The translations under genes were made by a program, and so were the position numbers. A stretch of 43,828 nt of DNA from a virus. Positions 1 to 43,828 of the stretch are shown here, one piece after another (the first letter of the stretch is position 1; the number at the start of each line of letters is the position of its first letter). Location: positions 1 to 43,828 of IMG/VR virus record IMGVR_UViG_3300048914_000068; one strand, given 5' to 3'. The notes below the pieces were generated by a model, which was not told the DNA's origin, made no database searches, and was given only the letters and a program-made list of their open reading frames with translations.

Positions 1-127
1 GCCCGCTTCGTCGCTACCGAGCTGAAAGCCTTGTCCAAGGCGCAGGGACCGGTGCGCGTCATGCAGAAGGCGGCGAAGGAATTCGCGGAAGCCATGCTGT
101 CCCGCAAGCAGATCAAGGACATCAAGC
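1..127. repeat. Left copy of the exact 127-nt end overlap (identical to 43702..43828); assembly circularisation signature
   Basis: Base-by-base identity of the first and last 127 nt of the window. Confidence 0.95.
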
Positions 128-2658
128 CGAACCAATACGCCGCCGCCGAGACCCGCGCCGCCAAGAACGCGGAGAAGGCACTCAAGTCTGGTGACTCTGC
201 CACAGCGGTCGCGGAGAAACGCAACCAGCTGGTGCAAAACTACGCCACGCGCGCCGCCTACGACGCGTTGACCGAGATTGAAAAGGGCGTGCGCTACTTG
301 CGCAAGTTCGACACCGAAGGCACCCGCAAGAACATCGACAGCGAGTACACCGACCAGATCGACACGCTGCTGGAACGCTTCGACTTGCGCACCTCCGTCT
401 CCAACAAGGATTCCGCCAAGCGCGAGAGTTTGATCAAGTGGGTTGAGGGGCAGCGTGAGCAGGGGTTCGAGCCGGACATCCCGCCCGAGCTGCTCAGCGA
501 AGCCATGCGCAAGCCCTACCGCACGATGACGCTGGAAGAGTTGCGCGGTTTGGTCGACACGGTGAAGCAAATCGAGCACCTCGGCCGACTGAAGCAGAAA
601 CTGCTGACCGCCAAGGACGAACGTGAATTCCAAGCCGTAGTCACCGAGATCAGCACCTCGATCGAGCAGAACGCGCAGGGCCGTACCGCCGAGACGCGGA
701 CGCCGACCGACGCCCTCGGCAAGCTCGCGGCCTCGCTCAAGCGCTTCTGGGCTTCCCACATCAAGGCCGCGACCTGGTCGCGCGTCTTGGATGGCGGCGC
801 GGATGGCGGCGCGATGTGGGAGTACTTCATGCGCTCGGCGAATGAACGCGGCGACATGGAGACCTCCATGCGGGCGGATGCCACTCTCGCGCTGTCCAGC
901 ATTCTCAGCCCAGTCGTCAAGACCTGGCCGACGATCCAAGGCAAGGGCCGCTACTTCGAGAGCGTCAAGCGGGCTTTCACCCGCGAAGGCGCGATGGCTG
1001 TGGCGCTGAACACGGGCAACGAGGGCAACTTACAGCGCTTGCTCGGCGGGGAGGGGTGGACGTTCCAACAAATCCGCCCAGTGCTGGAGTCGTTGACCGC
1101 GCAAGAGTGGCAAGCCGTACAGGCGGTTTGGGACCACTTCGAGACCTACCGCCCCGAGATCGGTGCCAAGGAACGCCGCATCTACGGCAAGGAGCCGAAT
1201 TGGATCGAGCCGACACCGTTCACCATCCGCACCGCAGACGGGCAGGAGATGAACCTCAAAGGGGGCTACTACCCGATCAAGTACGACGCCGCCGCCAGCC
1301 AGCGCGCCGAGGAGCATGCGGCCGCCGAGCAGGCCAAGCGCGACATGCAAGGTGCCTACACTGCGGCCACCACGCGGCGCAGCTTCACCAAGGCGCGCAG
1401 TGAGGAGGTCAGCGGTCGCCCGCTGCTGTACTCGCTGGTGGGCGTCTACTCGGGCGTGAACGATGTTATCCACGACCTGTCGTGGCATGAGTGGCTGATC
1501 GACGCGAACCGGCTGCTGCGCAGCAAGGCGATCGACCAGGCGATCCGCAGCCACTACGGACCGCAGGTCAAGGACCAGTACAAGCAGTGGGTCAAGGATG
1601 TGGCGCAGGGTGAAACCCGTGCCGACAACCCCGCCGAGGTCGGGGTGTCCTGGCTGCGTCAGGGCGTGAGTGCGGCAGGGCTGGGGTTCAACGTGATGAG
1701 CGCGTTAATGCAGGTCACGGGGTACACGCAGTCCATCGTGCGGGTCGGACCGACATGGGCGGCAAGAGGACTTGCCCAGTACGCGGCCAACCCTGTCGGC
1801 AAGGCGCGGGAAGTGCTCGGCAAGTCCAGCTTCATGGAAGGCCGTAACCGCACCCAGTTCCGCGAGCTGAACGAATTGCGCAACCAGGTCGAGGGGCAGA
1901 CCGCCGCAGGCCGTGCGCTCTCCCTTGGCACGTACTTCCTCATGATGCGGATGCAGAAAATGGTCGACGTGCCGACCTGGCTTGGGGCGTATGAGAAGGC
2001 CATCACCGAGGGGAACAACGAGGAGCGCAGCATCGCGCTTGCCGACCAAGCCGTGATCGACAGCCAAGGATCCGGCATGGTCAAGGACCTGTCGACCATC
2101 GAGCGCGGGGGGCCGGCGCTGAAGTTGTTCACCGTGTTCTACTCCTACATGAACACCGCACTCAACATGGGTGTGCAGGTCGGCATGACAGAACAGAACA
2201 AGGCCAAGTTCGCAGCCAAGATGCTGATGATCTACTCCGTGCCTGTGGTGCTGGGCTACGCGTTCAAGCATGCACTCACCCCCGGAGGGGGTGACGATGA
2301 CGACCCGGAGAAGCTTGCCAAAGCCTTGGCCGCCGAGCACATCAGCTACCTGACCGGGCTGTTTGTCGGAGTCCGCGAGTTCAGCGAGATGGGCAAGATC
2401 GTGACCGGTGCCGAAGGCGTACGCGACTACGCCGGCCCCGCTGGCGCGCGTGTGGTGGGCGACGCCTACAAGGCCGGCAAGCAGGCCATGCAAGGCGAGT
2501 TCGATGACGCCTTCCGCAAGGCGTCGATCAATCTGCTGGGCGACCTGTCCGGCATGCCTTCCGCCCAGATCAACCGCACCATCACCGGAGTCAATGCGCT
2601 CTCCGAAGGCGACACGAGCAACCCCGCCGCCGTGGTGCTCGGCTACCAGAAAAAATAA
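1..2658 (+). CDS. 3' part (885 codons) of the 2,607-aa giant virion ejection / polyvalent protein gene; the 5' part is 38536..43828 (gene split by the linearisation point of a circular assembly)
   Basis: The frame is open from nt 1; track ORF 31..2658 merely starts at an internal TTG. nt 1-127 equal 43702-43828 and the 43,701-nt unit is divisible by 3, so the frame is continuous. C-terminal hydrophobic segments (LKLFTVFYSYMNTALNMGV, MLMIYSVPVVLGYAF) fit a membrane-inserting ejection protein. Confidence 0.85.
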   Translation, partial: ARFVATELKALSKAQGPVRVMQKAAKEFAEAMLSRKQIKDIKPNQYAAAETRAAKNAEKALKSGDSATAVAEKRNQLVQNYATRAAYDALTEIEKGVRYLRKFDTEGTRKNIDSEYTDQIDTLLERFDLRTSVSNKDSAKRESLIKWVEGQREQGFEPDIPPELLSEAMRKPYRTMTLEELRGLVDTVKQIEHLGRLKQKLLTAKDEREFQAVVTEISTSIEQNAQGRTAETRTPTDALGKLAASLKRFWASHIKAATWSRVLDGGADGGAMWEYFMRSANERGDMETSMRADATLALSSILSPVVKTWPTIQGKGRYFESVKRAFTREGAMAVALNTGNEGNLQRLLGGEGWTFQQIRPVLESLTAQEWQAVQAVWDHFETYRPEIGAKERRIYGKEPNWIEPTPFTIRTADGQEMNLKGGYYPIKYDAAASQRAEEHAAAEQAKRDMQGAYTAATTRRSFTKARSEEVSGRPLLYSLVGVYSGVNDVIHDLSWHEWLIDANRLLRSKAIDQAIRSHYGPQVKDQYKQWVKDVAQGETRADNPAEVGVSWLRQGVSAAGLGFNVMSALMQVTGYTQSIVRVGPTWAARGLAQYAANPVGKAREVLGKSSFMEGRNRTQFRELNELRNQVEGQTAAGRALSLGTYFLMMRMQKMVDVPTWLGAYEKAITEGNNEERSIALADQAVIDSQGSGMVKDLSTIERGGPALKLFTVFYSYMNTALNMGVQVGMTEQNKAKFAAKMLMIYSVPVVLGYAFKHALTPGGGDDDDPEKLAKALAAEHISYLTGLFVGVREFSEMGKIVTGAEGVRDYAGPAGARVVGDAYKAGKQAMQGEFDDAFRKASINLLGDLSGMPSAQINRTITGVNALSEGDTSNPAAVVLGYQKK

Positions 2659-2723: not shown

Positions 2724-4703
2724 ATGACCATCGCCATCGCCACGGCTAAAGCAGGCCCTTACACCGGTAACGGCGTAACGTCGTCCTTTAGCTTCGCCTT
2801 CAATGTGTTTGCGGATGGCGACATCCGCGTCGTCGAGACCCTGACCGCGACAGGGGAGGAAACTGATCTCGTCCTCAACACGGACTACACCGTCAGCCGT
2901 AATCTCGACCAGGATAACAACCCCGGGGGGACGATCACCTACAAAGTGGGCGGCATCACTGCGGCGCTGCCATCGACAAAGAAGCTCACCATCGTCGGCG
3001 ACTTCAGCTTCGAGCAACCCACAGACATCCCCAACGGCGGCAGCTTTTTCGCGTCGGTCATTGAGACCGCTTTGGACCGCTTGACGCTGCTCGTGAAGCA
3101 GCTCAAGGTGGACACCGACCGCTCCGTTAAGGTTGACGTGTCGAGCAGCATCGACCCCGCCGAACTGATTGAAGAGCTGCTTGACGCGTCCACCGCCGCC
3201 GTGGCAGCCGCTGCCGGCGCTGCGGTGAGCGAGGGCAATGCCGCAGTCAGCGAAGCGAACGCAGCCGCAAGTGAAGCAGCAGCAGCGGTAAGCGAGACGA
3301 ACGCTGCGGCCAGCGCGACCAGCTCAAGTGCGTCGGCTACAAGCGCAAGTGCGTCGGCCACAAGCGCAAGTGCTTCGGCTACAAGCGCAAGTGCTTCGGC
3401 CACCACTGCCACCGCGCAGGCCACAAGTGCAAGTGCTTCGGCCACCACTGCCACCACGCAAGCCACCAACGCCAGCACGTCGGCCACCAACGCCAGCACG
3501 TCGGCCACCAACGCCAGCACATCGGCCACCAACGCCAGCACATCGGCCACGAGCGCATCCACCAGTGCTAGCGCGGCCTCTGCTTCGGCAGCCAGTGCGC
3601 AGGCGATCGTCGATTCGGTCGGCTTCCGGGACGTGCTGTTCAAGACGTTCTCTGACAGCCCGATCACGGTCGCACAATCCATGTCCGGCAAGCTGCTGTC
3701 GATCGATACTTCGGGCGGCGCGGTCACGATCAACCTGCCGGCGATCAGCGGGCTGACGCTGCCTTTCACCGTCGGGGTCAAGAAGGCCACCGGGGACTCC
3801 AACAGCGTCACCATCAACCGTGGCGGCAGTGACACCTTCGACGACGCCACTACCGCGCAGACGCTGTCGTCCATCGGCGGTATGACCTTGATCCCGGACA
3901 CCGACCCCGCACCAGACAAGTGGACCACGGCCGTCTTCGGCGCCGCCACCGGGCAGCAGCAGAAACAGCAGTTCTCCGGAGGTGGCGTCGACTTCACCGC
4001 CGGCTCCACCACCACGCTGACCATCACCGAAACGCCGATACCAACCTCGAAGGACGCGCTTGACGTCTTCTTCGATGCCGCGTACCAGCAGGAAAGCGAG
4101 TGGAGCTACAACGCGTCGACCGGGGTCATCACCTTCAACTCGGCGATTCCCACGGGGACGCTGAAGGTGCAGGCCCGCTGGATCTCGCCGCTTGCCATCG
4201 GCACGCCGGCGGATGGCACCGTGACGCTGGCCAAGATGGCGAACATCGCGACGCAGAAACTGATCGGTCGCTCGACATCCGGCACGGGCGTGCCGGAAGC
4301 ACTGTCAATCGACTCGACCACGCTGCAGCTATCGGGCGGCACGCTGTCGACGAAGTCTCCTTTCAACGCCAGCTACGACAGCGGCGATCAGACTATTACC
4401 GCAGCGGGCACGCTGACGCTCACGCATAACCTGGGGGTACTGCCGAAGGACATCGTTTGCTTCCTGCACTGCACCACTGCGGAATTCGGCTACTCCATCG
4501 GGGACATGGTCCCCTGCGCAGGCTTCGCGAGTTACGACGGCACGGCGTCACGGGGGGTTCAGTTCTACGATCTGACCACAACGCAGATGTCCTTGCGCTT
4601 CGCCAACGGGGCCGCGACCATGGCCCTTCTCAACAAAACCACGGGTGTGTATGTAGCCACCACGAACGCGAATTGGAAACTAGTAGTTAGGGCGTATGGT
4701 TGA
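2724..4703 (+). CDS. Tail fibre protein (659 aa)
   Basis: Position after the ejection-protein genes. Beta-rich N-terminal virion-attachment-like region, central Ala/Ser/Thr heptad array, beta-rich C-terminal region. AGGGGA box 10 nt upstream of ATG 2724. Confidence 0.75.
   Translation: MTIAIATAKAGPYTGNGVTSSFSFAFNVFADGDIRVVETLTATGEETDLVLNTDYTVSRNLDQDNNPGGTITYKVGGITAALPSTKKLTIVGDFSFEQPTDIPNGGSFFASVIETALDRLTLLVKQLKVDTDRSVKVDVSSSIDPAELIEELLDASTAAVAAAAGAAVSEGNAAVSEANAAASEAAAAVSETNAAASATSSSASATSASASATSASASATSASASATTATAQATSASASATTATTQATNASTSATNASTSATNASTSATNASTSATSASTSASAASASAASAQAIVDSVGFRDVLFKTFSDSPITVAQSMSGKLLSIDTSGGAVTINLPAISGLTLPFTVGVKKATGDSNSVTINRGGSDTFDDATTAQTLSSIGGMTLIPDTDPAPDKWTTAVFGAATGQQQKQQFSGGGVDFTAGSTTTLTITETPIPTSKDALDVFFDAAYQQESEWSYNASTGVITFNSAIPTGTLKVQARWISPLAIGTPADGTVTLAKMANIATQKLIGRSTSGTGVPEALSIDSTTLQLSGGTLSTKSPFNASYDSGDQTITAAGTLTLTHNLGVLPKDIVCFLHCTTAEFGYSIGDMVPCAGFASYDGTASRGVQFYDLTTTQMSLRFANGAATMALLNKTTGVYVATTNANWKLVVRAYG
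3185..3602 (+). repeat. In-frame 21-nt (7-aa) periodic array inside the tail fibre gene, about 19 heptads
   Basis: Near-perfect tandem units GCCACCAACGCCAGCAC(G/A)TCG x4 at 3462-3545 and AGTGC(G/T)TCGGC(T/C)ACAAGCGCA x3 at 3327-3389. Peptide reads AAVSEGN/AAVSEAN/.../ATNASTS x4. Confidence 0.9.
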
Positions 4704-8969: not shown

Positions 8970-8973
8970 CGCG

Positions 8974-17229: not shown

Positions 17230-17236
17230 GTTTTCA

Positions 17237-17419: not shown

Positions 17420-17435
17420 AACGTTTCTCCTCTTT

Positions 17436-19552: not shown

Positions 19553-19599
19553 GTTTGCAATTTCTCCTTGGTTGAGGTTGTTGGCGCTTCTGTGACTTC

Positions 19600-19628
19600 A
19601 ATGTAGCAAACGCTAAAAAGGAGGTCAA
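19600..19628 (-). promoter_or_regulatory. Early/middle promoter P_C: TTGACC-17 nt-TACATT (- strand) with TAGCAAACGCTA box
   Basis: - strand reads TTGACCTCCTTTTTAGCGTTTGCTACATT, the third near-identical copy. Confidence 0.65.
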
Positions 19629-25939: not shown

Positions 25940-27494
25940 CGCAGCGCTGGCTGATGATATTGCGCGCTTCTACGCGGACCCTCTTGGGTTTGTCCTGTTC
26001 GCCTACGATTGGGACTCTGACCCCTCGTTGCAGGTGGTCGAGCTGCCCGCCCCTTGGAACCTCCGTTACGACAGCCAGTACGGCCCGGATGCGTGGGCAT
26101 GCGAGCTACTTGATCGCATCGGCAACCAGGTCAAGGCCAACGCCTTCGATGGCGTCCACGCCGTCAAGGCGATCCGCGAAGCGATCGCCAGCGGCCACGG
26201 TATCGGCAAGAGCGCGATTACCGCTTGGCTCGTCAACTGGATCATGTCCACCCGCCCGTTCGCCAAGGGCACGGTGACCGCCACCACCGCGCCGCAGCTT
26301 GAGTCCAAGACCTGGGCTGAGATCGCGAAATGGAGCAAAAAGAGCATCACCGGCCACTGGTTCGACATCACTACCGGGCGCGGCTCGATGAAGATGGTAC
26401 ACAAAGAGCATCCGGAGTCGTGGTATTGCACCGCTCAAACGTGCCGCGAGGAGAACAGCGAGGCGTTCGCCGGGCAACACGCCGCGAACTCCACTTCGTT
26501 CTATGTGTTCGATGAGGCCTCGGGCGTCCCCGACACGATCTGGGAAGTGGCCGAGGGGGGTTTGACGGACGGTGAGCCGATGTTCTTCGCCTTCGGCAAC
26601 CCGACCCAGAGTTCCGGCGAGTTCCATAACTGCTTTCACACCAAGCGCCACCGCTGGAACACGCAGCAGATCGACAGCCGCACGGTGCAGATCACGAACA
26701 AGCAGGTTATCGATGAGTGGATCACCGACTACGGCCTCGACTCCGACTTCGTCAAGGTGCGCGTGCGCGGCATGTTCCCGGCGATGTCGGCCAAGCAGTT
26801 CATCTCGGTGGCTGACGTGGATGCCGCATATGGACGCCATTTGCGTCCCGAGCAATACGCGTTCGCGCCGAAGATCCTCGTCTGCGACCCGGCGTGGGAC
26901 GGGGACGACGACCTCGTCATCGCGCTGCGGCAGGGCCTGAAGTTCGAGGTGCTGCGCGTGATCCCGAAGAATGACAACGATGTCGAGATCGCCAATATCC
27001 TGGCGCGGCTGGAAGATGAGCACGAGGCGGACGCCGTGTTTCTGGACAAGGGCTACGGCACCGGCATCTACAGCGCCGGGTCGACGATGGGGCGCGACTG
27101 GCTGATGGTGGACTTCGGCAGCGCCTCGCCCGACCCAGGCTGCCTCAACATGCGTGCCTACATCTGGCGCGAGATGCGCGATTGGTTGAAGGAAGGCGGC
27201 GCAATCCCGAAAGATCCCGTGCTGCACACCGAGCTGGTCGGCATCCAGACCGTGCCGCGCATGGAGGGCTTGATTCAGTTGGAGGCCAAGAAGGACATGA
27301 AGAAGCGCGTTGGCTTCTCCCCGAACCGCGCCGATGCGCTGGCGATTTCGTTCGCCTACCCCGTGACCCGCAAGGCGCGCGGCTTGTCCGCCCGTCGCCC
27401 CAACGCGCCCCAACGCGAGCACGACCCGTATGCCTCCCTAAACCGTGTCCTTGACGCGAACCCGGTCGAGCATAATCCCTACGACTTGCGTTAA
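25923..27494 (+). CDS. terL: Terminase large subunit (523 aa; GTG start)
   Basis: Walker A-like ASGHGIGKSA, FYVFDEASGV (Walker B), nuclease-half acidic motifs. Size and synteny fit. Confidence 0.9.
   Translation: MTSQADAALADDIARFYADPLGFVLFAYDWDSDPSLQVVELPAPWNLRYDSQYGPDAWACELLDRIGNQVKANAFDGVHAVKAIREAIASGHGIGKSAITAWLVNWIMSTRPFAKGTVTATTAPQLESKTWAEIAKWSKKSITGHWFDITTGRGSMKMVHKEHPESWYCTAQTCREENSEAFAGQHAANSTSFYVFDEASGVPDTIWEVAEGGLTDGEPMFFAFGNPTQSSGEFHNCFHTKRHRWNTQQIDSRTVQITNKQVIDEWITDYGLDSDFVKVRVRGMFPAMSAKQFISVADVDAAYGRHLRPEQYAFAPKILVCDPAWDGDDDLVIALRQGLKFEVLRVIPKNDNDVEIANILARLEDEHEADAVFLDKGYGTGIYSAGSTMGRDWLMVDFGSASPDPGCLNMRAYIWREMRDWLKEGGAIPKDPVLHTELVGIQTVPRMEGLIQLEAKKDMKKRVGFSPNRADALAISFAYPVTRKARGLSARRPNAPQREHDPYASLNRVLDANPVEHNPYDLR
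27440..27476 (+). promoter_or_regulatory. Late-operon motif copy L3 (AAACCGTGTCCTTGACG - 14 nt - CATAAT), embedded in the last 55 nt of terL
   Basis: Exact 17-mer, translated in terL as LNRVLDA. The hexamer CATAAT is 5 of 6 to consensus. The GNAT gene starts 30 nt downstream. Confidence 0.5.
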
Positions 27495-27505: not shown

Positions 27506-27967
27506 ATGGTCGAGGTACGGGAATGCTCGATGCTGGTGTTCTGGGCGCTCAATGAGACGCCCGCGCTGCTTGCCGAATACGCGGAAGAAGCCGCGAATGC
27601 GCACCTGCCCCCGCCGAACCCCTCACAACCGATGTACTTCCAGATGGAGCGCGCCGGCATACTGCACACCGCCATAGCGATGGTGGACGGCGAGATGGTG
27701 GGCTTTCTCGCGCTGCTGGTGAACCGCAACCCGCACTACAGCGAGGTGTTGGCGGTGGCTGAGTCCTTTTTCGTCGCGCAAGCGCACCGCAAGACGGGCG
27801 CCGGGCGGATGCTGAAGAGATGGGCGGAAGCAAAAGCAGAGGAGCAGGGAGCTTTGGGCCTGTACTTTAGCGCTCGCGTCGGTAGCACGCTCGCCCAAAT
27901 GTTTGAGCGCGAACGGGCATACCGGGAGACCAACCGCATCTTCTTCAGGAGTTTTACGAATGAGTGA
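27506..27967 (+). CDS. GNAT-family N-acetyltransferase (153 aa)
   Basis: Motif A VAQAHRKTGAGRMLKRWAE preceded by MVGFLALLV. AAGGGGACGGGGG lies before the ATG. Confidence 0.75.
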   Translation: MVEVRECSMLVFWALNETPALLAEYAEEAANAHLPPPNPSQPMYFQMERAGILHTAIAMVDGEMVGFLALLVNRNPHYSEVLAVAESFFVAQAHRKTGAGRMLKRWAEAKAEEQGALGLYFSARVGSTLAQMFERERAYRETNRIFFRSFTNE

Positions 27968-30488: not shown

Positions 30489-30854
30489 ATGACAGACGAG
30501 TACAACCCGATTGATATCGCCGAACAGGAACGCACTGCCGCCGAATACGCGGAAGAGGAGCGACGCCGGAGAGATCAGGAGATCAGCGACTTGTGCAAGG
30601 TCATGGGCAGCAAAGAGGGCCGGCGCTTCATGTGGCGGCTGTTGAGTGAGGCGGGCGTTTATCGATTGAGTTTCAGTTCTGACCTGGCGACGATGGCTTT
30701 CAACGAAGGCAATCGCAATGCGGGGTTGAAGCACTTGAACGACATCATGACCGCATGCCCCCATCTCCACGCCTTGATGCTGGACGAGCAGAAACAAGCA
30801 AAGGAAAGATATGACCAACGAAACGCAGACCGCAGGAACAAGCGCTCCCGCTAG
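30489..30854 (+). CDS. Conserved head-module protein (121 aa; resembles Bbp19-like proteins of BPP-1-type phages)
   Basis: GRRFMWRLLSEAGVY...MAFNEGNRNAGLKHL pattern. The ATG has no SD. Overlaps the scaffold gene start by 44 nt. Confidence 0.5.
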   Translation: MTDEYNPIDIAEQERTAAEYAEEERRRRDQEISDLCKVMGSKEGRRFMWRLLSEAGVYRLSFSSDLATMAFNEGNRNAGLKHLNDIMTACPHLHALMLDEQKQAKERYDQRNADRRNKRSR

Positions 30855-31494
30855 CACGACGACAGACGCTCCGGCACCCGTCGCAAGTGCGGCTCCCGTG
30901 TCGACGGACACGACACCGGGTTCGCTTTTGACGACGGAGGCATCGGCATCCACCGAGCCCCACGCCGAACCTGCCACTGCGCCCGCGGGTCAGGAAGCCA
31001 CGCAAGAGAAGGACGAGCCGCAAGGTGCTCCCGAGAAGTACGAATTCGCGACACCGGAAGGCGTCAAGTTCGACGAAGGGATCACTGAAAAGCTGTCGGC
31101 GCTCGCCAAAGAAAAGAACCTCTCGCAGGAGGACGCGCAGAAGTTCGCCGACCTCGGGGTGGAAGTCGCGAAGCAAACGCGCGACGCCTACGCCAAGCAG
31201 ATCGAGGAGGTCCAAATGAAGTGGGCCAACGATTCCCGCGTCGACAAGGAGTTCGGCGGCGACAAGCTAGCCGCAAACATGGCGGTCTCGAAGCGCGCGC
31301 TTGAAGCGTTCGGCAGTCCCGAACTCAAGCAAATGCTCAACGAGACTGGGCTTGGCAACCACCCCGAAATCATCCGCGCATTTTTCCGCGTGGGGCAGGC
31401 GATCAGCGAAGACAAGCTTGTGCCGGGGGGTAAAGCACCGAACACCGCGGGGGATGCGCGCTCTTTTTACGGCAATAGCCAGATGAACCCTTAA
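30811..31494 (+). CDS. Scaffolding protein (227 aa)
   Basis: Position between portal and capsid. Low-complexity Ala/Thr/Pro/Glu N-terminus followed by a helical charged body. Confidence 0.65.
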   Translation: MTNETQTAGTSAPASTTTDAPAPVASAAPVSTDTTPGSLLTTEASASTEPHAEPATAPAGQEATQEKDEPQGAPEKYEFATPEGVKFDEGITEKLSALAKEKNLSQEDAQKFADLGVEVAKQTRDAYAKQIEEVQMKWANDSRVDKEFGGDKLAANMAVSKRALEAFGSPELKQMLNETGLGNHPEIIRAFFRVGQAISEDKLVPGGKAPNTAGDARSFYGNSQMNP

Positions 31495-36260: not shown

Positions 36261-36296
36261 AACCGTGTCCTTGTGGCTGGGGGCCGGCGTTACCCT
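36260..36296 (+). promoter_or_regulatory. Late-operon motif copy L5 (AAACCGTGTCCTTGTGG - 14 nt - TACCCT)
   Basis: 15 of 17 match, beginning with the last base of the nozzle TAA. Lies in the 64-nt gap before ATG 36325. Confidence 0.4.
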
Positions 36297-36324
36297 TGGC
36301 ACTTATCATTCAGGAGGAAGCGGT

Positions 36325-36870
36325 ATGTCCGGGGCAATGAGCGCGGGGACGATGGGCTCGATCATGATGGGGATGCAGGTTGCCGGGGCTGTCACGAGCG
36401 CGCAGGGCGCCGCACAGCAATCGCAGGCGACCAAGGCCGCATACGAATACCAGTCGGCTGTCAGCAGCAACAATGCGCAGCTCGCGCAATGGCAAGCGCA
36501 AGATGCCTTGCAGCGCGGCGCGCAGGCCGAGCAGCAGCAACGGCTGAAGACGGCGCAATTGAAGGGCAGTCAGCGCGCACGCCTCGCCGCGAACGGGGTC
36601 GCGTTGGACGAGGGCTCGGCGCTGAACGTGTTGCAGGATACCGACTACATGGGCGGGCAAGACGCGATGACCATCCGCGACAACGCGGCGCGCGAAGCCT
36701 GGGGGTACCGTACCCAGGCCGGCAACTACGCAAGCGATGCCAGCATGCTGCAATCCCGCGCCGATGCGGAAGACCCCGATCGGGCCATGTTCGGCTCCCT
36801 GCTGGGCAGCGCCGGCTCTGTGGCGAGTAGTTGGTACAAACGGAAAACAACGACGACGTCAGGGGGCTGA
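36325..36870 (+). CDS. Internal virion protein A (T7 gp14 position), 181 aa
   Basis: ATG 36325 preceded by CAGGAGGAAGCGGT. Gly/Met/Ala-rich hydrophobic N-terminus and Gln/Ala-rich helical body. Confidence 0.6.
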   Translation: MSGAMSAGTMGSIMMGMQVAGAVTSAQGAAQQSQATKAAYEYQSAVSSNNAQLAQWQAQDALQRGAQAEQQQRLKTAQLKGSQRARLAANGVALDEGSALNVLQDTDYMGGQDAMTIRDNAAREAWGYRTQAGNYASDASMLQSRADAEDPDRAMFGSLLGSAGSVASSWYKRKTTTTSGG

Positions 36871-36873
36871 CCG

Positions 36874-38535
36874 GTGCCGAAGATCCCTACCTATAGCGCC
36901 CCGCAGGTTGAGGAGCGCGCGCTGCCTGGCGCGCGACAATCCTCGGTCGCGTCGCCTTCGCTGTTCGGCGCCGAAGCCGAGCAGACCACGCAGACCGGCA
37001 AGAGCCTGATGAACGCGGGCTCGCAGCTCGGCGACATCGCCGTGAAGATGCAGGAGCGCGAGAATGCGGACATGGTGTTCCGCGCAGAGACGGCGCTTAA
37101 GGACGATTATCTTAAATTCGAAGAGCAGACCCGCAGCCGCAAAGGCGTCAACGCATGGGGCGTGCTGCCGGACACGCAACAATGGTTTGCCGACCAGGAA
37201 AAGAAGCACAGCGAATTACTCCAAAATGACGCGCAGCGCTACCACTTCGGTAAGACCTTTGTTCGTTTGCGCCAAACCGCCGAGGGCCAGGCCGCGCAAT
37301 ACGAGGTCAACGAACGCCGCCATTCGCAAGAAGAAGCGGGCAGGGCCTCGATCGCCAGTACGACAAGCCTAGCTGCGGCCTCCGCCGATAGCGTGATCGC
37401 CGCCGCGCGCTCGGGCGATGACACGGTCAACCCCATCGGCGGGCTTAAGCTGGATGTTTTGCAAAAGATCCATGACCTTTCCCGGCTAGGCGGCTGGACC
37501 CCGGAGCGTCGGCAGTTCGAGGAGTCGCAACACCTCACCAACTTTCACAAGCAAGTGATACAGAACATGGTGGACAAAGACCCCGCCATCGCGAAACGGT
37601 ACTTCGAGACAAATAAGGGTGAGATCAACGGCGGCGAATATGATTCGATTAACCGCGTACTGCAGGTTGGCGAGACCAAGCAAGCCGGATTTGAATTCGC
37701 CAACCGTCAAGACATCCGCGAGCTGAACACGGTCGAGCAGCGTATCGCGGCGGCGCGCGACTTTTTCAAAGACGAACCGGCCAAGCGCGAATCCGCAATC
37801 GCCGAACTGAAGCTGCGCGAGAACGAGCGCATCCAGTTCCGGGAGCGCGGGCAGAAGGACGCCGCTGACCAGGCGTGGCGGACCTACGCACAGTCCGGCG
37901 ACCTGAAGGACATCCCTTCCACCACCATCGCCGCCATGGACGGCAAGGATCTCGAAGCATTGCGTAAGCACGCTGAGCTTAAGCTAAATGGGACGGCTGT
38001 TAGAACTGATCCCGTTGCGTGGCTTGATGTCCGGGATCGTATCTTGGCTGGCGAGCAAGTAGACTTGCGCAAGCACATCAACGAAATCGCTGTCGGCGAT
38101 ATCAAGGAGCTTGAAAAACTGCAAACCAAGGACGCCGACATTCGGGACGCCGCAACCTTGTCCCAACAACTCGGCAACACTCACGACCTGATGAAGTGGG
38201 GCGGCGGCGACAAGGCGAAGAAAGGCATGTTCGACAAGGCGGCTACGGACGCGATCAATATCGAGCAGCAGCGCCTCGGCAAAAAGCTCAACTACGAACA
38301 GCGCCAGCAGATAATCGACAAGATGCTCATTCAAGGCAAGGTGGACGGCTCGGGCTGGTTCAGTGACAGCAAAACATACTACGAGGTAGCGGGCACCCGG
38401 GATGCTGCGAAGTTCGAACCGAAGCCGAGCAAAGAAGATAAGCAGGCCATCGTCGAGCGTTATACGCGGAGGAATGGCGCGCCCCCGAACGATGCGCAGA
38501 TCAGCGCAATCTACAAAACATGGAAGGGGTTCTGA
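36874..38535 (+). CDS. Internal virion protein B (T7 gp15 position), 553 aa, GTG start
   Basis: MPKIPTYSAPQV start typical of podoviral core proteins. Long helical charged sequence. Confidence 0.55.
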   Translation: MPKIPTYSAPQVEERALPGARQSSVASPSLFGAEAEQTTQTGKSLMNAGSQLGDIAVKMQERENADMVFRAETALKDDYLKFEEQTRSRKGVNAWGVLPDTQQWFADQEKKHSELLQNDAQRYHFGKTFVRLRQTAEGQAAQYEVNERRHSQEEAGRASIASTTSLAAASADSVIAAARSGDDTVNPIGGLKLDVLQKIHDLSRLGGWTPERRQFEESQHLTNFHKQVIQNMVDKDPAIAKRYFETNKGEINGGEYDSINRVLQVGETKQAGFEFANRQDIRELNTVEQRIAAARDFFKDEPAKRESAIAELKLRENERIQFRERGQKDAADQAWRTYAQSGDLKDIPSTTIAAMDGKDLEALRKHAELKLNGTAVRTDPVAWLDVRDRILAGEQVDLRKHINEIAVGDIKELEKLQTKDADIRDAATLSQQLGNTHDLMKWGGGDKAKKGMFDKAATDAINIEQQRLGKKLNYEQRQQIIDKMLIQGKVDGSGWFSDSKTYYEVAGTRDAAKFEPKPSKEDKQAIVERYTRRNGAPPNDAQISAIYKTWKGF

Positions 38536-41500
38536 TTGCCTACCCTAGACGAAGCCATTGACGGCACACCCCCGTTGGACGCCGCGATCACCGGCGTGGC
38601 GGACGACAAGCGGCGCCAGTCCCTGTATGGCGCGGTGCGGCAGAACCCGGACGAGTACGGCCGCGCGGTGCAGTTGGCCCGCGCCACCGGAGTGCCCGCG
38701 CCCGTGGTGGCGCGCAACCTACCGGACGTGGAGCAGCGCGCCAAATTCGATGCGCTCGACGCCGCAGTCGATCGGGGCTCCGCGCTCGCGGTGAAGTTGG
38801 AGAGCCAAGACTTCGCCGCCCTCAGTCACGATGACATCGCCAGCCTTAAGGACATCGAGCGCACGTTGAACCGCCGCAGTGCGGGCAAGATCGACGGCCC
38901 GGCCTTCGTGCGCAAGCCGGTCGCAATGGCGTTTAGCGGGCCAGACGCCACGGCTTCTAGCGTGGTCTCTGGTTTGTTGCGGTCTGTCCCGCAAGGCGGG
39001 GAAGCGACGCGGCAAGGACTTCGGCTCCAGTTCGCGGACTTGATCGGGGCGGGGGCAATGCGCGAGGATGCGCTGCAAAAGTACCAGCAGAACCAATTCG
39101 AGAGTGCGCTGTCGACCCCGGAGTTTGACTCGGCCACTGCGCGTGGGGTGTACAGCGGGGGCGTCAGCCTCCTGCGCAACCTACCCGGCATGGCAGCGTC
39201 CATCGCCACCGGCAACCCCGCTCCCGCACTCGCCACCATAGGTGCCCAAACCGAAGCCGATGCCTACGGCAAGTACCGCGCTCGTGGTGCCACGCCGGGC
39301 ATGGCTCTGCTCGGCGCGACGGGCGAAGGGGCAACCGAAGTCGGCACCGAAATGCTGCCGATGGGATTCCTCGTGAAGAACATGGGCAAGGTGGGCACCG
39401 GTCAGTTCCTTTCGGGGCTACTTGCACGTGAGATTCCAAGTGAGCAAATCGCCACGCTCGTGCAAGACGCGGTCGACACCGCCGTCGCCAACCCCGACAA
39501 GACATGGGGCCAGTACCTCAAGGAACGGCCAGGCGCGGCGTATGAAACGCTGGTGGCTACCTTAACCCAAGCGGGGGCGATGGAAGGCGCACATGTCGCA
39601 ATGAGCCGTCTTTCGGGCACTCAGCAACAAGCCAATCAAGCGTTGCAAGACGCCGCCGCGATTGACCACTTGACGAAGCTGTCCACCGCCTCCAAGGTGC
39701 GCCCGCGCGACATGCAGAGCTTCGAAGACTTCGTGCAGTCGGCAAGCGAAGGCGGACCGGTAGAGAACATCCACATTGACACTCGGGCGTTGCAGCAGTC
39801 CGGCATCCCGCCGGAAACGCTAGCCACCTTGTCACCGACCGCCGCCGCGCAGATGCAGGAGGCAATTGCCACCGGTGGCGATCTCGTGATTCCGATAGGC
39901 GAGTACGCCGGCCGCATTGCCGGCACAGAACTCGACTCGGTGCTGGCGCCCCACTTGCGCACCAGCGAGGACGCGTTAAGCTTGGACGAAGCGCAGAAGT
40001 ATTTCCAGACGCAAGGGGAGCAGTTCCGCGCGGAAGCAGCTCGGATCATGGAAGAGAAGTCCAGCGATGACGCGTTCCAGGCCTCGGCCAAGGCGGTCGA
40101 GGGGAATCTTTTCGCGCAGCTGAAGCAAGCCGGACGGTTCACGGACGACGTGAACACGGCATACGCCACGCTGATGCGCGACTTCTACGTCACCACCGCC
40201 TCGCGTCTCGGCCTCACGCCCGAGGAAATGTTCAGCCGCTACCCGCTGCAAGTGCGTGCGGAAAGCGTGGCGGCGGAACAGCGGATGGGGCAGGGGGATA
40301 CCACACCGGTTTCGGCTGACCGCGTCGCACTGGCACTTGATGAGACGCGGTGGCTCGACCGTGGGCTAAAGATCGGCAAGGCGACAAAGCTCTACCGAGG
40401 CGTGTCAGACCGCACAGGTAAGAACACCGCCAACTTCGGACGCGGGCTGTACGTCACCACTGATAAAAGCGAAGCGGCCCAATATGGCGATGTGAAGGGG
40501 ATGCCACTGACCGATCTTCCGCAGAACCCCTTGCGATTTGCGGATGAAGGCAAGTTCCGTGAGTGGGAATCGTTCGTCGCGCGGGAGGTGTTCGGGCATC
40601 AGCGTATGGCCGACTTCGAGGCGGCGAGGGGCATCCCCGATGAATGGGTGCGGCTTCTCGACCCTGCGGTCGACGGTATCCAAATCGGAACCGGTAAGGG
40701 TGCATTCTTCGTCAGATTCCCTGATGTATCAAAAGCTGCAACTTCGTCCTATACTGGTGGCAACACGTTAAGCCAAGGTGGACAGAATGGAACTGGAACT
40801 GATCGACCCGGCGTACAAGCCGAGCAAGAGCCTCGCACAGTTGGCGGCGGAACACCCCGAGTGGACTGGACTGAACAAACTCGCATCCGAACCAAAAGCG
40901 GAAAACCCGCAACCGTCTACCGCGGAGCAAGCCGCCCCCTCGGAACCGCAGACTTCAACGCCGGATCTCTCGGTCATGCAACGGGTAATCCAAGCAGTGG
41001 CCTCGGTGTTTGGTTCAGCCTCGACCGAGAAGACGCCGCCGGATACGGCTCCGTAACCGAGGGCTTTCAGCTCGACATCCGTAAGCCGAAGGTCTACCGG
41101 GATTCCGACATTCCCGGCTTCGACACACCGCAGGAAGCGCAAGCGTTTGCGCGCGAACTCCAATCCCAAGGCTATGACGGCATCGCGATCGATTACCGTG
41201 GTTTAGGTGGCCCGCTGCACCTTGTCGCCTTCACACCCGAGACGGTCATCCAGCCAGCCGCACCTAAGCCGCTCGATATGTCGCAGTTCTTCCAAGGTGA
41301 ACACGCGAGCACGACACCGCAGACAGAAACCGAAGCATTTAAAAAATGGTTTGGCGATAGCAAAGTCGTTGACGAAAACGGCAAGCCGTTGGTGGTTTAT
41401 CACGGGGGTAATGAAAAGATAGCAGCCATCGAGGAGGGCAAAGGGAAGTTCGGTGGCATCTTTGTGCGCCTTGGGAAGTCATCGGGGTATGGGAGAGTCG

Positions 41501-43828
41501 AGAATGAGTTTTATCTCAGGGGTTACGCGACGCTATCTGAGCTGCGCGACGCTATCGACTCACAGGAAGACGGGGGCGAGTCCTTAATTAAAAAGTTTCT
41601 CGGGGACTCGGTAGCAAACACTGACGATGTTATTGACGCCCTTACGGATGGAGGGCATTACCCCATCGACGAAGGGGTTTGGGAGAGTATTGGGGCGATT
41701 GACGAAGCTGATGCGCAGGTAGAAATCCAAAAGCTTCGCGGCAAGGTTGCCAGAGAACTAGGATTCGGCGCTATTGAAACTCCTGACGAATTCGATGGCG
41801 AAACCGTGATGGTCCTCGACCCGGCGCAAATCAAATCCGCCACCGGCAACCGTGGCACGTTTGACCCGAACGACCCGAACGTTCTGGCGCAACCCACCGA
41901 AGAGCGAGGCGGCAACCGCGCCGAGATCAGCTTTTCGAAGGACATCACGCAAACCCCGACCGTCGTCACGCTGTTCAAGAACGCGGATCTGTCCTCCTTC
42001 CTGCACGAGATGGGCCACTTCCAGCTGGAAGTGCTCGCCAACATCGCCAGCCGCCCCGACGCACCGCAAGGCATCGTCGACGACATGAACGCCGCGCTGA
42101 AATGGTTTGGCATCAAAGGCACTGAAGATGTAAAAGGCGGTGAGCAGTCGGGCAGCTTGGGGCAAGGCGCGGTCGGCCAAACCGAGACGCCTGAGTTCAA
42201 GGCTTGGTTCGGTGATAGCAAAGTCGTTGACGAAAACGGCAAGCCGCTGCCGATGTATCACGGCACCAGCCACGCCGGGTTCGAGTTCTTCGACACCTAT
42301 GCGTCGAACTATGGCCTGATGGGCATGGGCGGCTACTTTACCGCCGATCCGGCGGTCGCCAGCAGCTACACAAGCAAGGGCAAGGGCGATTCGCAGGGCG
42401 TATACAAGGTCTACCTGTCTATACAGAACCCGATCGATATGGAGGCGAAGGCCGATCCAGCGGAGTGGGCCAAGCAGTTCGACGGTATCGAGCAGTACCA
42501 TGAAGGCGGCGACACGAATGAAAGTTGGTATCGCGCCGCCGAAGAAATGATATCCGATGAAGGGGTGCCGAAGTGGGAGGGTGCCGAGGCGATGCAGGAC
42601 GGGCTGCGCGCAATGGGCCACGACGGCATCACCCATATCGGCGGTGGCCGCGTCGCCGCTGACGGCATTCGCCACCGCGTGTATGTCGCGTTCGATCCAG
42701 AGCAAATCAAATCCGCCATCGGCAACAGCGGTGCTTTTAACCCGAACGACACTAGCATCCTGGCGCAAGGTGGTGGGGAAGGAGCCAAACCCAGCACCCT
42801 GCCCAAAGGCCGCACCGCACTCGACGTGTGGAACGCCATGTCGCTGGAGGAGAAGCGCCCCTACCACGAGCAATTTGCCCGCGGCTTCGAGGCGTATCTG
42901 TTCGAGGGCAAGGCACCGAACCAGGAACTGCAATCCCTGTTCCAGCGCTTCCGTGCATGGATGGTCAGCGTCTACAAGTCGATGGCGAACCTGCGCGTCG
43001 AGATTAATGATGAGATTCGCGGCGTGTTCGACCGTTTGCTCGCCACCGACGAGATGATCAAGGCTGCCGAAGATGCGCGCAGCATGACCCCGCTCTTTGC
43101 CACCTCTGAAGAGATGGGAGACACGCCACAAGCGTGGGCGGATTACCAGCGCATCGGTATCGAAGCCAGCCGCGACGCGCAGGACGAGCTGCAGCAGCGC
43201 AGCATGAAGGACATGCGATGGCTGACCAACGCCCGCAGCCGCGTGCTGAAGGAGCTGCAGCGCGACGCCAAGGACAAGCGCAAGACGGTCGAGGAAGAGG
43301 TCCGCGCCGAGGTCGACGCCATGCCGGTCTACGCTGCGCAGAAGTTCTTGAAGCGTGGCGAGCTGGTCGGCCCCGATGGCGAACAGATCAAGGCCGAGAA
43401 GGGCCACCGGCTCGACACGGGGGCGCTGGCCGAGATGTACCCAGAGACGATGCTCAACCGCCCGAACCTGGACGGCTTGCGCGGTATGACGCGTAAGGAT
43501 GGCTTGCACCCCGATCTCGTGGCCGAGATGTTCGGCTTCACTTCGGGTGACCAGCTTGTTCGCGATATCCTCACTGCCGAAAACAAAGCCGACCTCATCA
43601 CCGGCTTGACTGATCAGCGCATGCTGGAGCGCTACGGCGACCTCAACCACCCCGACACCTTGGCGCGTGCCGCAGACGAAGCAATCCACAACGACGCCCG
43701 CGCCCGCTTCGTCGCTACCGAGCTGAAAGCCTTGTCCAAGGCGCAGGGACCGGTGCGCGTCATGCAGAAGGCGGCGAAGGAATTCGCGGAAGCCATGCTG
43801 TCCCGCAAGCAGATCAAGGACATCAAGC
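38536..43828 (+). CDS. 5' part of the 2,607-aa giant ejection / polyvalent protein (T7 gp16 position); runs off the window end and continues at nt 1..2658
   Basis: No stop found in this frame in the stretches read codon by codon (38536-38595, 40381-41100), and it reads as continuous coding sequence to the window end. Starts at TTG 38536 directly after the TGA, with GGAAGGGG 5 nt upstream. High third-position GC. Contains ART-like modules and HEMGH. Absent from the ORF track because it has no in-window stop. Confidence 0.8.
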   Translation, partial: MPTLDEAIDGTPPLDAAITGVADDKRRQSLYGAVRQNPDEYGRAVQLARATGVPAPVVARNLPDVEQRAKFDALDAAVDRGSALAVKLESQDFAALSHDDIASLKDIERTLNRRSAGKIDGPAFVRKPVAMAFSGPDATASSVVSGLLRSVPQGGEATRQGLRLQFADLIGAGAMREDALQKYQQNQFESALSTPEFDSATARGVYSGGVSLLRNLPGMAASIATGNPAPALATIGAQTEADAYGKYRARGATPGMALLGATGEGATEVGTEMLPMGFLVKNMGKVGTGQFLSGLLAREIPSEQIATLVQDAVDTAVANPDKTWGQYLKERPGAAYETLVATLTQAGAMEGAHVAMSRLSGTQQQANQALQDAAAIDHLTKLSTASKVRPRDMQSFEDFVQSASEGGPVENIHIDTRALQQSGIPPETLATLSPTAAAQMQEAIATGGDLVIPIGEYAGRIAGTELDSVLAPHLRTSEDALSLDEAQKYFQTQGEQFRAEAARIMEEKSSDDAFQASAKAVEGNLFAQLKQAGRFTDDVNTAYATLMRDFYVTTASRLGLTPEEMFSRYPLQVRAESVAAEQRMGQGDTTPVSADRVALALDETRWLDRGLKIGKATKLYRGVSDRTGKNTANFGRGLYVTTDKSEAAQYGDVKGMPLTDLPQNPLRFADEGKFREWESFVAREVFGHQRMADFEAARGIPDEWVRLLDPAVDGIQIGTGKGAFFVRFPDVSKAATSSYTGGNTLSQGGQNGTGTDRPGVQAEQEPRTVGGGTPRVDWTEQTRIRTKSGKPATVYRGASRPLGTADFNAGSLGHATGNPSSGLGVWFSLDREDAAGYGSVTEGFQLDIRKPKVYRDSDIPGFDTPQEAQAFARELQSQGYDGIAIDYRGLGGPLHLVAFTPETVIQPAAPKPLDMSQFFQGEHASTTPQTETEAFKKWFGDSKVVDENGKPLVVYHGGNEKIAAIEEGKGKFGGIFVRLGKSSGYGRVENEFYLRGYATLSELRDAIDSQEDGGESLIKKFLGDSVANTDDVIDALTDGGHYPIDEGVWESIGAIDEADAQVEIQKLRGKVARELGFGAIETPDEFDGETVMVLDPAQIKSATGNRGTFDPNDPNVLAQPTEERGGNRAEISFSKDITQTPTVVTLFKNADLSSFLHEMGHFQLEVLANIASRPDAPQGIVDDMNAALKWFGIKGTEDVKGGEQSGSLGQGAVGQTETPEFKAWFGDSKVVDENGKPLPMYHGTSHAGFEFFDTYASNYGLMGMGGYFTADPAVASSYTSKGKGDSQGVYKVYLSIQNPIDMEAKADPAEWAKQFDGIEQYHEGGDTNESWYRAAEEMISDEGVPKWEGAEAMQDGLRAMGHDGITHIGGGRVAADGIRHRVYVAFDPEQIKSAIGNSGAFNPNDTSILAQGGGEGAKPSTLPKGRTALDVWNAMSLEEKRPYHEQFARGFEAYLFEGKAPNQELQSLFQRFRAWMVSVYKSMANLRVEINDEIRGVFDRLLATDEMIKAAEDARSMTPLFATSEEMGDTPQAWADYQRIGIEASRDAQDELQQRSMKDMRWLTNARSRVLKELQRDAKDKRKTVEEEVRAEVDAMPVYAAQKFLKRGELVGPDGEQIKAEKGHRLDTGALAEMYPETMLNRPNLDGLRGMTRKDGLHPDLVAEMFGFTSGDQLVRDILTAENKADLITGLTDQRMLERYGDLNHPDTLARAADEAIHNDARARFVATELKALSKAQGPVRVMQKAAKEFAEAMLSRKQIKDIK
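40787..41056 (+). CDS. Candidate overlapping ORF (89 aa, +1 frame relative to the giant gene); status uncertain
   Basis: ATG 40787 preceded by AAGGTGG at 5-6 nt. Third-position GC is 21/25 in this frame versus 16/40 in the giant-gene frame over the same stretch. The product is Pro/Ser/Thr/Ala/Glu-rich. Confidence 0.25.
   Translation: MELELIDPAYKPSKSLAQLAAEHPEWTGLNKLASEPKAENPQPSTAEQAAPSEPQTSTPDLSVMQRVIQAVASVFGSASTEKTPPDTAP
41356..41388 (+). repeat. 33-nt perfect intragenic repeat, copy 1 (GATAGCAAAGTCGTTGACGAAAACGGCAAGCCG)
   Basis: Identical to 42214-42246; encodes DSKVVDENGKP at the start of effector module 3. Confidence 0.9.
42004..42018 (+). other. Zincin metallopeptidase motif HEMGH within the giant protein
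   Basis: Codons CAC GAG ATG GGC CAC in the giant-gene frame (context SSFLHEMGHFQLEVL). Confidence 0.6.
42214..42246 (+). repeat. 33-nt perfect intragenic repeat, copy 2
   Basis: Identical to 41356-41388, at the start of effector module 4. Confidence 0.9.
43702..43828. repeat. Right copy of the exact 127-nt end overlap (identical to 1..127)
   Basis: Base-by-base identity with the window start. Confidence 0.95.

Follow-up and report, generated by a model that had tools for sequence, protein, structure and literature searches.

Hardies et al. (2016) classed Bbp10 of the Bordetella podophage BPP-1 as a homologue of internal virion protein (IVP) D, the class of T7 gp16, and pointed out that IVPs house domains destined for the cytoplasm, such as the virion RNA polymerase (vRNAP) of N4 and the gp60 methylase of H66. 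Iyer et al. (2017) defined the polyvalent proteins, together with the domains LPD22 and ART-PolyVal, the latter of the ADP-ribosyltransferase (ART) type; they described architectures with several ARTs, up to 12 copies in one protein, predicted that such proteins are injected, and proposed their processing by MPTases. The HExxH region of N4 gp50 was unified with the zincins by Iyer et al. In a preprint on PhiXacm4-11, gp35, a protein of 2,300 amino acids (aa) at the gp16 position, showed no similarity to PDB entries, and core density was seen above the portal. Here we describe a 2,607-aa protein at the corresponding position in the viral record IMGVR_UViG_3300048914_000068, of which all 43,828 nucleotides (nt) were analysed; this stretch is referred to below as the window.

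A sequence-only reading of the window had taken this protein for an injected polyvalent protein that joins several ART-like modules and a zincin to a DNA-ejection protein. The concept of injected effectors carried on polyvalent or internal virion proteins was published in 2016–2017, so that this central interpretation is correct and already known. From the open reading frame (ORF), architecture, homologies, motif conservation and cysteine depletion computed here, we conclude that the giant protein is probably the largest internal virion (IVP-D/gp16-position) ejection protein, consisting of a scaffold and exchangeable effector cassettes in two slots.

Results

On the closed circle, the frame that begins at position 38536 stays open across the window ends (43701 to 1) as far as 2658, giving 2,607 codons (7,824 nt) with no in-frame stop before the stop codon at 2656–2658, as the sequence-only reading had proposed. 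The first 127 bases of the window are an exact direct repeat of the last 127 (1–127 and 43702–43828), which is an assembler overlap typical of k=127; the contig represents either a closed circle or a genome with terminal redundancy, 43,701 bp long when closed. The first part of the ORF (38536..43701, plus strand) holds codons 1–1722 and continues at window position 1, where the second part (1..2658, plus strand; positions 1–127 duplicated at 43702–43828) holds codons 1723–2607 and the stop codon. The start codon is a TTG that abuts the TGA of the preceding gene, with GGAAGGGG lying 6 nt 5' of it. Because 623 database proteins match the ORF at E<1e-10, and the best 120 of them (1,855–3,402 aa) share the same end-to-end plan, this is not a chance frame. 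The family analyses below rest on these 120 proteins, or 121 counting the query.

The giant protein is orthologous to BPP-1 Bbp10 (61% identity in the C-terminal 1,208 aa, against 36% in the N-terminal ~600 aa) and is also related to gp39 of the Caulobacter phage Jess A. BLAST coverage of the query by its 120 relatives divides it into a conserved region at aa 26–585, a variable one at ~590–1125, a short conserved stretch at 1126–1200, a second variable region at 1201–1425 and a conserved remainder at 1426–2607; coverage is unbroken over the window-end join (aa 1722/1723) in 120/120. The N-scaffold (aa 1–585; 38536..40290, plus strand) is covered by 106–120 of the 120 relatives from aa 26 on and includes LPD22 (aa 27–117; 38614..38886, plus strand; Pfam PF18834), which is present in almost all of them. 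The C-scaffold, of ~1,180 aa, matches PHROG 9880; the portion in the window tail (aa 1521–1722; 43096..43701, plus strand) is 61% identical to Bbp10. Of the roughly 1,100 aa of helical sequence described earlier as ending in hydrophobic helices, helical character is supported by AlphaFold2 (AF2) for aa 1428–1517, and the plural does not hold: the sole strongly hydrophobic, transmembrane-like segment is FAAKMLMIYSVPVVLGYAF (aa 2459–2477; 2209..2265, plus strand; Kyte-Doolittle 1.59).

Between these conserved regions lie two slots. Slot 1, from the N-scaffold to the HExxH domain, ranges from 0 to 1,530 aa in the relatives and is occupied here by three modules, M1–M3; slot 2, inside the HExxH domain, is empty in ~106–110 of the 120 relatives and here holds a fourth, M4. 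The slot 1 cargo of relatives includes PBECR1/3/5 nucleases, ART-PolyVal, GNAT, RadC/JAB, zeta toxin, a Pol-beta NTase with MuF_C, DUF3293, DUF7178, LPD3 and LPD23, and that of slot 2 comprises ParB_N or ART-type domains. The nearest relatives are 75–81% identical to the query in the C-scaffold yet carry different cargo: similarity to them ends at aa 922–924, is back at 1118–1124, ends again at 1191 and returns at 1424–1429. Identity as a polyvalent protein was borne out, in that a single large polypeptide combines LPD22 (69.9 bits), ART-PolyVal (127.9 bits in three stretches) and an HExxH domain, among virion genes, with internal virion genes upstream and a tail fibre downstream.

Two observations on the family may be added. 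In P0015, P0025 and P0106, slot 2 holds an insert of ~290–345 aa with a distinct ~300-aa domain (PAYHGSPY...GWGLYFA...GIKYLDG...), which scores 24–27 bits against ART-PolyVal over its first ~55 residues (P0015 and P0106 scanned) and may represent a further unannotated ART-like subfamily. Bbp10 in RefSeq and many BFVD relatives are labelled 'crystallin beta/gamma motif-containing protein', 'lysis protein' or 'coil containing protein', labels for which none of our searches gave support.

The four ART-like modules named by the sequence-only reading all appear to be ART-related, and the motifs that it quoted lie where it placed them (KLYRG... at 40387–40491, KPATVYRG... at 40903–41049, FKKWFGDSK... 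from 41338, FKAWFGDSK... from 42196). The search by hidden Markov models that it had recommended for each module found M4 (90.5 bits) and M3 (39.3 bits) above the gathering threshold of ART-PolyVal (Pfam PF18760, Tox-ART-HYD2-like; 31.2 bits) and M2 (25.1 bits) below it, while M1 has no Pfam or NCBIfam match, with only faint hints of PARP and DUF3990 in Pfam. Aligned with hhalign, the M2 family matches the M4 family over its full length at 99.4%, which is convincing as regards the ART membership of M2; M1 matches M2 at 95.4%, and at 91.1% with independently built alignments, in contrast to 58% for M1 against M4, so that M1 would be tied to the ART family solely via M2.

M4 (aa 1218–1405; 42187..42750, plus strand), in slot 2, is a canonical ART-PolyVal and alone among the four modules has the H-Y-D active site, with residues on strands 1, 2 and 5, that defines the family (H1242, Y1267, D1363). 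M2 (aa 769–918; 40840..41289, plus strand) is an ART-PolyVal homologue of an R-W-D subfamily (R796, W826, D881), and M1 (aa 587–745; 40294..40770, plus strand) a rare ART-like module with R621-Y639-D713. The residue of strand 1 is H in 20/21 domains of the M4 type and R in all 60 of the M2 type and all 10 of the M1 type; that of strand 2 is Y, H or F in the M4 type, W in 50/60 of the M2 type and Y in 10/10 of the M1 type. The Asp of G-x-D-G is present in 21/21, 60/60 and 10/10 domains of the M4, M2 and M1 types, respectively, and in 92% of 225 ART-like domains. An alternative assignment of the catalytic Asp to the 'D before P' (AFDPE) was dropped, as the AFDPE column is variable whereas the Asp of G-x-D-G is invariant. 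The YRG first motifs, which had been remarked on as unusual, are therefore marks of conserved subfamilies. As for the number of modules, 67 of the 121 family members lack any ART-like module; a single one occurs in 39, two occur in 12 and three in two, and the query alone has four. Four is thus unusual within the family, as had been suggested, and not in general, since up to 12 copies per protein have been published.

A HMMER search of 1.84 billion representatives with M1 and M2 gave 423 relatives. Domains of the M2 type are widespread and, scoring 22–30 bits against ART-PolyVal wherever scanned, go unannotated. We observed the R-W-D domain in >250 representative proteins at E<1e-10 (P0121–P0268 listed), among them giants that reach 5,358 aa as well as proteins of 500–900 aa with no recognisable N-terminal domain; no MuF domain, and hence no MuF fusion, was found in the short M2-containing proteins. 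Matches of the M2 profile to a designed TIM barrel and a SPOR domain in the PDB were rejected as spurious. M1-type domains are rare, with ~13–14 homologues (2 by k-mer search, ~13 among the HMMER matches in hand).

M3 (aa 930–1112; 41323..41871, plus strand) is an ART of the AcrIF11 type, which the sequence-only reading had not recognised. It matches NCBIfam NF052490, 'AcrIF11 family anti-CRISPR ADP-ribosyltransferase', over profile positions 3–142 of 142 (E=7.5e-8, 33.4 bits). A phmmer scan of the PDB with M3 gave a weak match to AcrF11, which a profile of five M3-subfamily sequences raised to E=2e-25 for AcrF11 (6KYF), with 3e-14 for AcrIF11Pae2 (8DWQ); with a profile of M3 and its closest relative (P0119) only, the same two entries still rank first among 177,635 PDB sequences (1.6e-4 and 0.03). 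The essential residues of AcrIF11 are D115 in Pae1 and H20 and D146/E147 in Pae2 (PMC12421852). In M3, D1084-E1085 align with D115 of Pae1 and D146/E147 of Pae2, and H956 with H20 of Pae2, so that the module has both the strand-1 His and the acidic D/DE following an LG-x-x-x-[VI]-E strand that characterise AcrIF11 (F976 being its third marked residue). By these comparisons M3 is an AcrIF11 homologue and not an equivalog. A view of M3 as a degenerate ART, with I975 at the strand-2 Tyr position and G1076 replacing the Asp of G-x-D-G, was dropped, the AcrIF11 D-E pair being intact. Modules of the M3 type are present in 4/121 family members. The published survey of AcrIF11 dropped every homologue of more than 200 aa, and embedded versions would for this reason have escaped notice.

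The HEMGH motif (42004–42018) and the later segment HEQFARGFEAYLFEGKAP (42865–42918) were both correctly located by the sequence-only reading, which missed that they belong to two halves of one conserved domain split by M4. In uninterrupted relatives, the HExxH is separated from the HEQFARGFEAY-type motif by 54–55 aa, against 287 aa here, and M4 is evidently a domain insertion within the HExxH domain. Half 1 (aa 1126–1200; 41911..42135, plus strand) bears H1157-E1158-x-x-H1161, the HExxH being present in 120/120 relatives, and half 2 (aa 1426–1520; 42811..43095, plus strand) bears W1432, H1444, E1445, A1448 and E1452; all of these, apart from the two x positions, are invariant, as are G1458, P1461, F1469, W1475 and Y1480. 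AF2 modelled the interrupted domain of the query with pLDDT 87–96 and the uninterrupted domain of P0002 with a mean pLDDT of 85.5 and a pTM of 0.79, as a beta-hairpin followed by seven helices. The HExxH and the downstream residues H1444, E1445 and E1452, which in a zincin motif would each lie in a helix, do fall in predicted helices (pLDDT >90). The domain is probably metal-binding and may act as a peptidase.

Seven copies of a short motif, [LMF]-x-Q-[GP], occur in the protein, and six of them bound the modules, with a single copy in each of the six linkers, which together span 6% of its length (P~3e-7, motif chosen post hoc). The six are MGQG between N-scaffold and M1 (aa 584–587; 40285..40296), LSQG between M1 and M2 (aa 745–748; 40768..40779), FFQG between M2 and M3 (aa 918–921; 41287..41298), LAQP between M3 and the HExxH domain (aa 1117–1120; 41884..41895), LGQG between HExxH half 1 and M4 (aa 1208–1211; 42157..42168) and LAQG between M4 and HExxH half 2 (aa 1409–1412; 42760..42771), all on the plus strand. 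The points at which cassettes diverge from those of the nearest relatives fall on these motifs; similarity to P0001 and P0005 stops at FFQG, and similarity to relatives returns at LAQP. Checked independently in the 120 relatives, the motif is found at the end of the N-scaffold in 52 and immediately before the HExxH domain in 60, where ~10 were expected, and a broader Phi-x-Q form (Phi at P3 being L/F/M, P1' being G/S/A) stands at the same two sites in 113/120 and 119/120. Motifs of the form [L/F/M]-x-Q-[G/S/A] are most likely processing sites for release of the modules; the cutting enzyme may be the HExxH domain, in line with the role that Iyer et al. suggested for MPTases.

The giant protein contains no cysteine in 2,607 aa. 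Its 120 relatives contain 33 in 285,042 aa (0.012%), with 101/120 having none, and this depletion of ~100-fold affects scaffold and payload alike. All three proteins at ejection positions (201, 553 and 2,607 aa) are cysteine-free, against 0.35–2.1% in other genes of the genome. A protein that passes unfolded through a narrow channel and the oxidising periplasm would be expected to be poor in cysteine, and the pattern argues for ejection of the entire polypeptide together with its effectors. A zero-cysteine pattern may be usable as a sequence signature of ejected proteins.

The late module of the genome reads, in order, terminase (25923–27494), T7-type portal (Pfam Head-tail_con), a Bbp19-like gene, GP7 major capsid, Bbp16 cement, tail tubular A and B, a T7_gp14-family gene, a muralytic-type gene, the giant ORF and a tail fibre (2724..4703, plus strand). 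The two genes upstream of the giant ORF encode an internal virion protein of 201 aa (36265..36870, plus strand; Pfam T7_gp14 family, 55 bits) and the 553-aa gp15-position protein (36874..38535, plus strand), in which a match to PHROG 'endolysin' families is confined to the N-terminal 277 aa and no Pfam SLT was found. The giant ORF thus follows gp14- and gp15-type genes and precedes the tail fibre, which agrees with the earlier placement at the gp16/IVP-D position, after two smaller internal-virion genes. A separate lysozyme gene lies at 5617–6039. The replication module (6500–19600) is on the minus strand, opposite to the structural genes, and this non-structural arm carries helicases (one at 7363–8766), DNA polymerase A (PolA; 13825–15945), a gp2.5-like single-stranded DNA-binding protein (16657–17355) and an exonuclease (17436–18845), all four on the minus strand. 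The genome has no ORF of the size of an RNA polymerase, neither an integrase nor an RNA polymerase was noticed among the window ORFs scanned, and no DNA-level match was found in the phage collection. Judged from its genes, the phage is a new epsilon15/BPP-1-like podophage. Relatives of the C-terminal region with 61–66% identity occur in large contigs of Sterolibacterium, Thiobacillus, Acidovorax, Accumulibacter and Azoarcus metagenome-assembled genomes; for this reason the host is probably a betaproteobacterium, and part of the giant-protein family is, on the same evidence, prophage-borne.

Three further genes deserve mention. A PAPS-reductase-like gene (PHROG 424) lies at 22083–22820 on the plus strand; according to a 2026 NAR paper, phage genes of this type cluster in anti-defence hotspots, and one aids evasion of the Dnd system. 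A GNAT acetyltransferase gene stands between terminase and portal (27506–27967, plus strand) and, since T7 IVP-A is a member of an acetyltransferase family (Hardies et al. 2016), could be another virion-associated enzyme. An ORF of 227 aa, again without cysteine (30811–31494, plus strand), matches the PHROG 458 'protease' (E=1e-57) and has no match in Pfam or NCBIfam; because the capsid proteins of BPP-1 are uncleaved, a role as the lineage's scaffolding protein is more likely than one as a protease. A head-maturation protease was considered as the processor of the junctions and judged unlikely, given this lack of Pfam and NCBIfam support, a capsid without propeptide and the uncleaved capsid of BPP-1.

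Discussion

Genomic context and homology together give good support to a function of the giant protein as an ejected effector carrier. The scaffold, comprising the N-region with LPD22, the HExxH domain and the C-region with its single transmembrane-like helix, would be packaged in the capsid core and form part of a trans-envelope conduit for DNA, while the two slots would carry swappable effectors. Expressed late and packaged in few copies, the protein would be threaded unfolded through the tail into the cell, before or along with the DNA; its modules, four predicted NAD+-dependent ADP-ribosyltransferase-type enzymes of four subtypes (R-Y-D, R-W-D, AcrIF11-type and H-Y-D), would refold there and ADP-ribosylate various host targets prior to phage gene expression. 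As the phage encodes no RNA polymerase, the host enzyme and host defence proteins are likely targets. By homology M3 could disable CRISPR-Cas or another defence component, and cleavage at the Phi-x-Q-G boundaries, perhaps by the HExxH domain, would release the modules.

Several results weigh against this reading. The accessible literature text contains no proteomic statement that places the giant protein, Bbp10 or PhiXacm4-11 gp35 in virions. The scaffold profile matched neither T7 gp16 nor any other solved relative among all PDB sequences, a set in which any solved T7 gp16 chains should be present, nor did it reproduce the homology of Bbp10 to IVP-D that Hardies et al. (2016) claimed from podovirus-restricted chains of hidden Markov models; the link to gp16/IVP-D therefore rests on synteny and on that study. 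The zincin fold proposed by the sequence-only reading was not confirmed by five kinds of test. Searches of the HExxH domain against Pfam, by segment and by family member, and against NCBIfam gave no zincin family, MPTase-PolyVal included; its profile had no match among PDB sequences; Foldseek searches of the PDB with two AF2 models gave a best E of 0.94 with TM ≤0.28, and those of BFVD returned solely uncharacterised members of the same family; and the alignment to the HExxH region of N4 gp50 by hhalign, although in register, was insignificant (0.6% with the single sequence, 6.6% with a profile of nine N4-like phages). Rather than the mixed beta-sheet, active-site helix and Glu helix of a zincin, the confident AF2 model has a two-stranded hairpin and seven helices, so that an invariant HExxH domain is left of the proposal. 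The junction motif was defined once the sequence had been inspected, and the capsid proteins of BPP-1 are uncleaved, which speaks against processing. M3 falls short of the equivalog cutoff of NF052490 (50 bits), and its helical insert, which in AcrIF11 is thought to determine target specificity, is divergent. Profiles of M1 and M2 found no solved relatives in the PDB, the canonical His is absent from both, and M1 has only ~14 known homologues.

The effectors might be delivered and never released, the intact protein holding its ARTs tethered at the cytoplasmic exit of the conduit, with the Phi-x-Q-G motifs acting as flexible, conserved linker caps or as recombination joints. Similarity breakpoints at the motifs would suit such joints, the HExxH domain could not be shown to have a protease fold, and a head-maturation protease is unsupported (the 227-aa PHROG 'protease' lacking a Pfam match and the BPP-1 capsid being uncleaved). 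Against this stand the conservation of the motif, which is position-specific in the manner of a recognition site (P3 L/F/M, P1 Q, P1' G/S/A) even in members with almost no payload, the invariant domain with HExxH and H-E...E that adjoins every payload slot in 120/120 members, and the processing by MPTases that Iyer et al. (2017) inferred as a general theme; we regard permanent tethering as doubtful, if still a serious alternative. That the HExxH domain is instead an effector or an envelope-breaching metallopeptidase, acting on host proteins or peptidoglycan peptides and not on its own polypeptide, seems to us unlikely. The domain does belong to the invariant scaffold and not to the cargo, murein endopeptidases occur on some podophage IVPs (Hardies et al. 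2016), and 10 of 40 members gave scattered matches to Tox-MPTase4, Peptidase_M3 and DUF4344 (E 0.02–0.16); a muralytic-type protein, however, already occupies the gp15 position, the genome has its own lysozyme gene, and no similarity to any characterised peptidase was found.

It is also conceivable, and in our judgement decidedly unlikely, that some or all of the ART-like modules are pseudoenzymes serving as binding or spacer domains. Suspicion falls chiefly on M1 and M2, which have R in place of H, with W in place of Y in M2, which lie below the Pfam cutoff or have no match, and for which no solved homologue shows binding of NAD+. The substituted positions are, however, near-invariant over independent lineages (R 60/60, D 60/60 and W 50/60 in the M2 type; R, Y and D each 10/10 in the M1 type), and this near-invariance argues for selection on an active site rather than decay; Arg in strand 1 is, moreover, the usual NAD+-binding residue of ARTs of the R-S-E class. 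Finally, the ORF spans artificial contig ends and no direct proteomic record of the protein was found, which could mean that the protein is no virion component at all and that we are dealing with a late cytoplasmic polyprotein or an artefact of circularisation. We hold this to be extremely improbable: the frame is exactly kept over the 127-nt overlap, BLAST coverage is continuous there in every one of the 120 relatives, the block of internal virion and tail-fibre genes is syntenic in BPP-1 and the Caulobacter phages, and the extreme depletion of cysteine extends to the gp14- and gp15-position proteins.

Within the preferred reading of an ejected effector carrier, a more specific proposal can be formulated, in which M3 is a ready-made, virion-delivered enzyme of the AcrIF11 type that comes in with the leading DNA and catalytically inactivates CRISPR-Cas or another defence ahead of all phage transcription, and the Bbp10/IVP-D family is a two-slot effector chassis that cuts itself at Phi-x-Q|G by means of its HExxH domain. 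As a whole we consider this proposal a long shot. M3 nevertheless offers a concrete, testable case for the delivery of anti-CRISPR-like enzymes in ready-made form, a question usually answered in the negative; were it delivered in the virion, the multi-infection 'cooperation' of conventionally expressed anti-CRISPRs would no longer be needed. If the broader inference holds, the family would be a compact natural device for injecting multiple catalytic effectors, each virion carrying about four copies. The R-W-D subfamily occurs in hundreds of proteins and falls systematically under the Pfam threshold, and many phage and plasmid ARTs are therefore likely to be unannotated. Simple sequence rules that could help to find ejected effector carriers in metagenomes are provided by the depletion of cysteine, the junction motif and the layout of slots and junctions, and the same rules could serve the engineering of phages to deliver chosen enzymes.

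The closest described relatives are BPP-1 Bbp10 (Rauchvirus) and Jess A gp39, which share with the giant protein the genomic position, the N-scaffold with LPD22, the HExxH domain, the C-scaffold and the same upstream pair of a gp14-like and a muralytic protein. They differ from it in cargo, Bbp10 carrying a PBECR1 nuclease and Jess A gp39 one ART-PolyVal, whereas four ART-type modules are present here, one of the AcrIF11 type and one within the HExxH domain; the giant protein is also ~550 aa longer. The neighbouring muralytic proteins differ too, for BPP-1 Bbp11 and Jess A gp40 (720–758 aa) have an SLT in mid-protein, and the 553-aa protein here has no Pfam SLT. With the polyvalent proteins of Iyer et al. 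(2017) it has in common a large multi-domain build with LPD22 and ART-PolyVal, multiple ART copies, an HExxH domain, a place among virion genes and predicted injection. That study, in contrast, makes no mention of gp16, internal virion proteins or Bordetella phage, and its ART-PolyVal is defined by H-Y-D, whereas M1 has R-Y-D and M2 R-W-D.

M3 resembles AcrIF11 (6KYF, 8DWQ, NF052490) in matching the model end to end and in keeping the strand-1 His and the D-E dyad. AcrIF11, however, is a free protein of ~130–170 aa expressed from an acr locus after entry, which ADP-ribosylates Cas8f/Csy1 and so blocks type I-F CRISPR, whereas M3 lies inside a 2,607-aa predicted virion protein, with an ART-PolyVal N-terminal 'FKKWFGDSKVVD' extension in addition to its sub-equivalog score and divergent insert. 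In the literature searched we found no account of an AcrIF11 relationship for such a cargo module, of an insertion slot within the HExxH domain, of the junction motif, or of the cysteine depletion and the R-W-D and R-Y-D subfamilies.

Among phages with injected enzymes, N4 offers a parallel in its gp50 virion RNA polymerase, a giant injected virion protein that holds an enzyme in an IVP-D-type scaffold with HExxH; its cargo is an RNA polymerase, and the HExxH regions of the two proteins are in register at an insignificant hhalign value. T4 Alt is likewise an ART that is carried in the head, enters the cell with the DNA and modifies host RNA polymerase and other proteins, but it is a single-domain enzyme of the R-S-E type (Alt/VIP2 clade), is processed by the prohead protease and stands outside the proteins of the ejection conduit. 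Set beside these systems, the giant protein would be an extreme example of a known strategy, in which host-modifying enzymes are injected ready-made with the genome.

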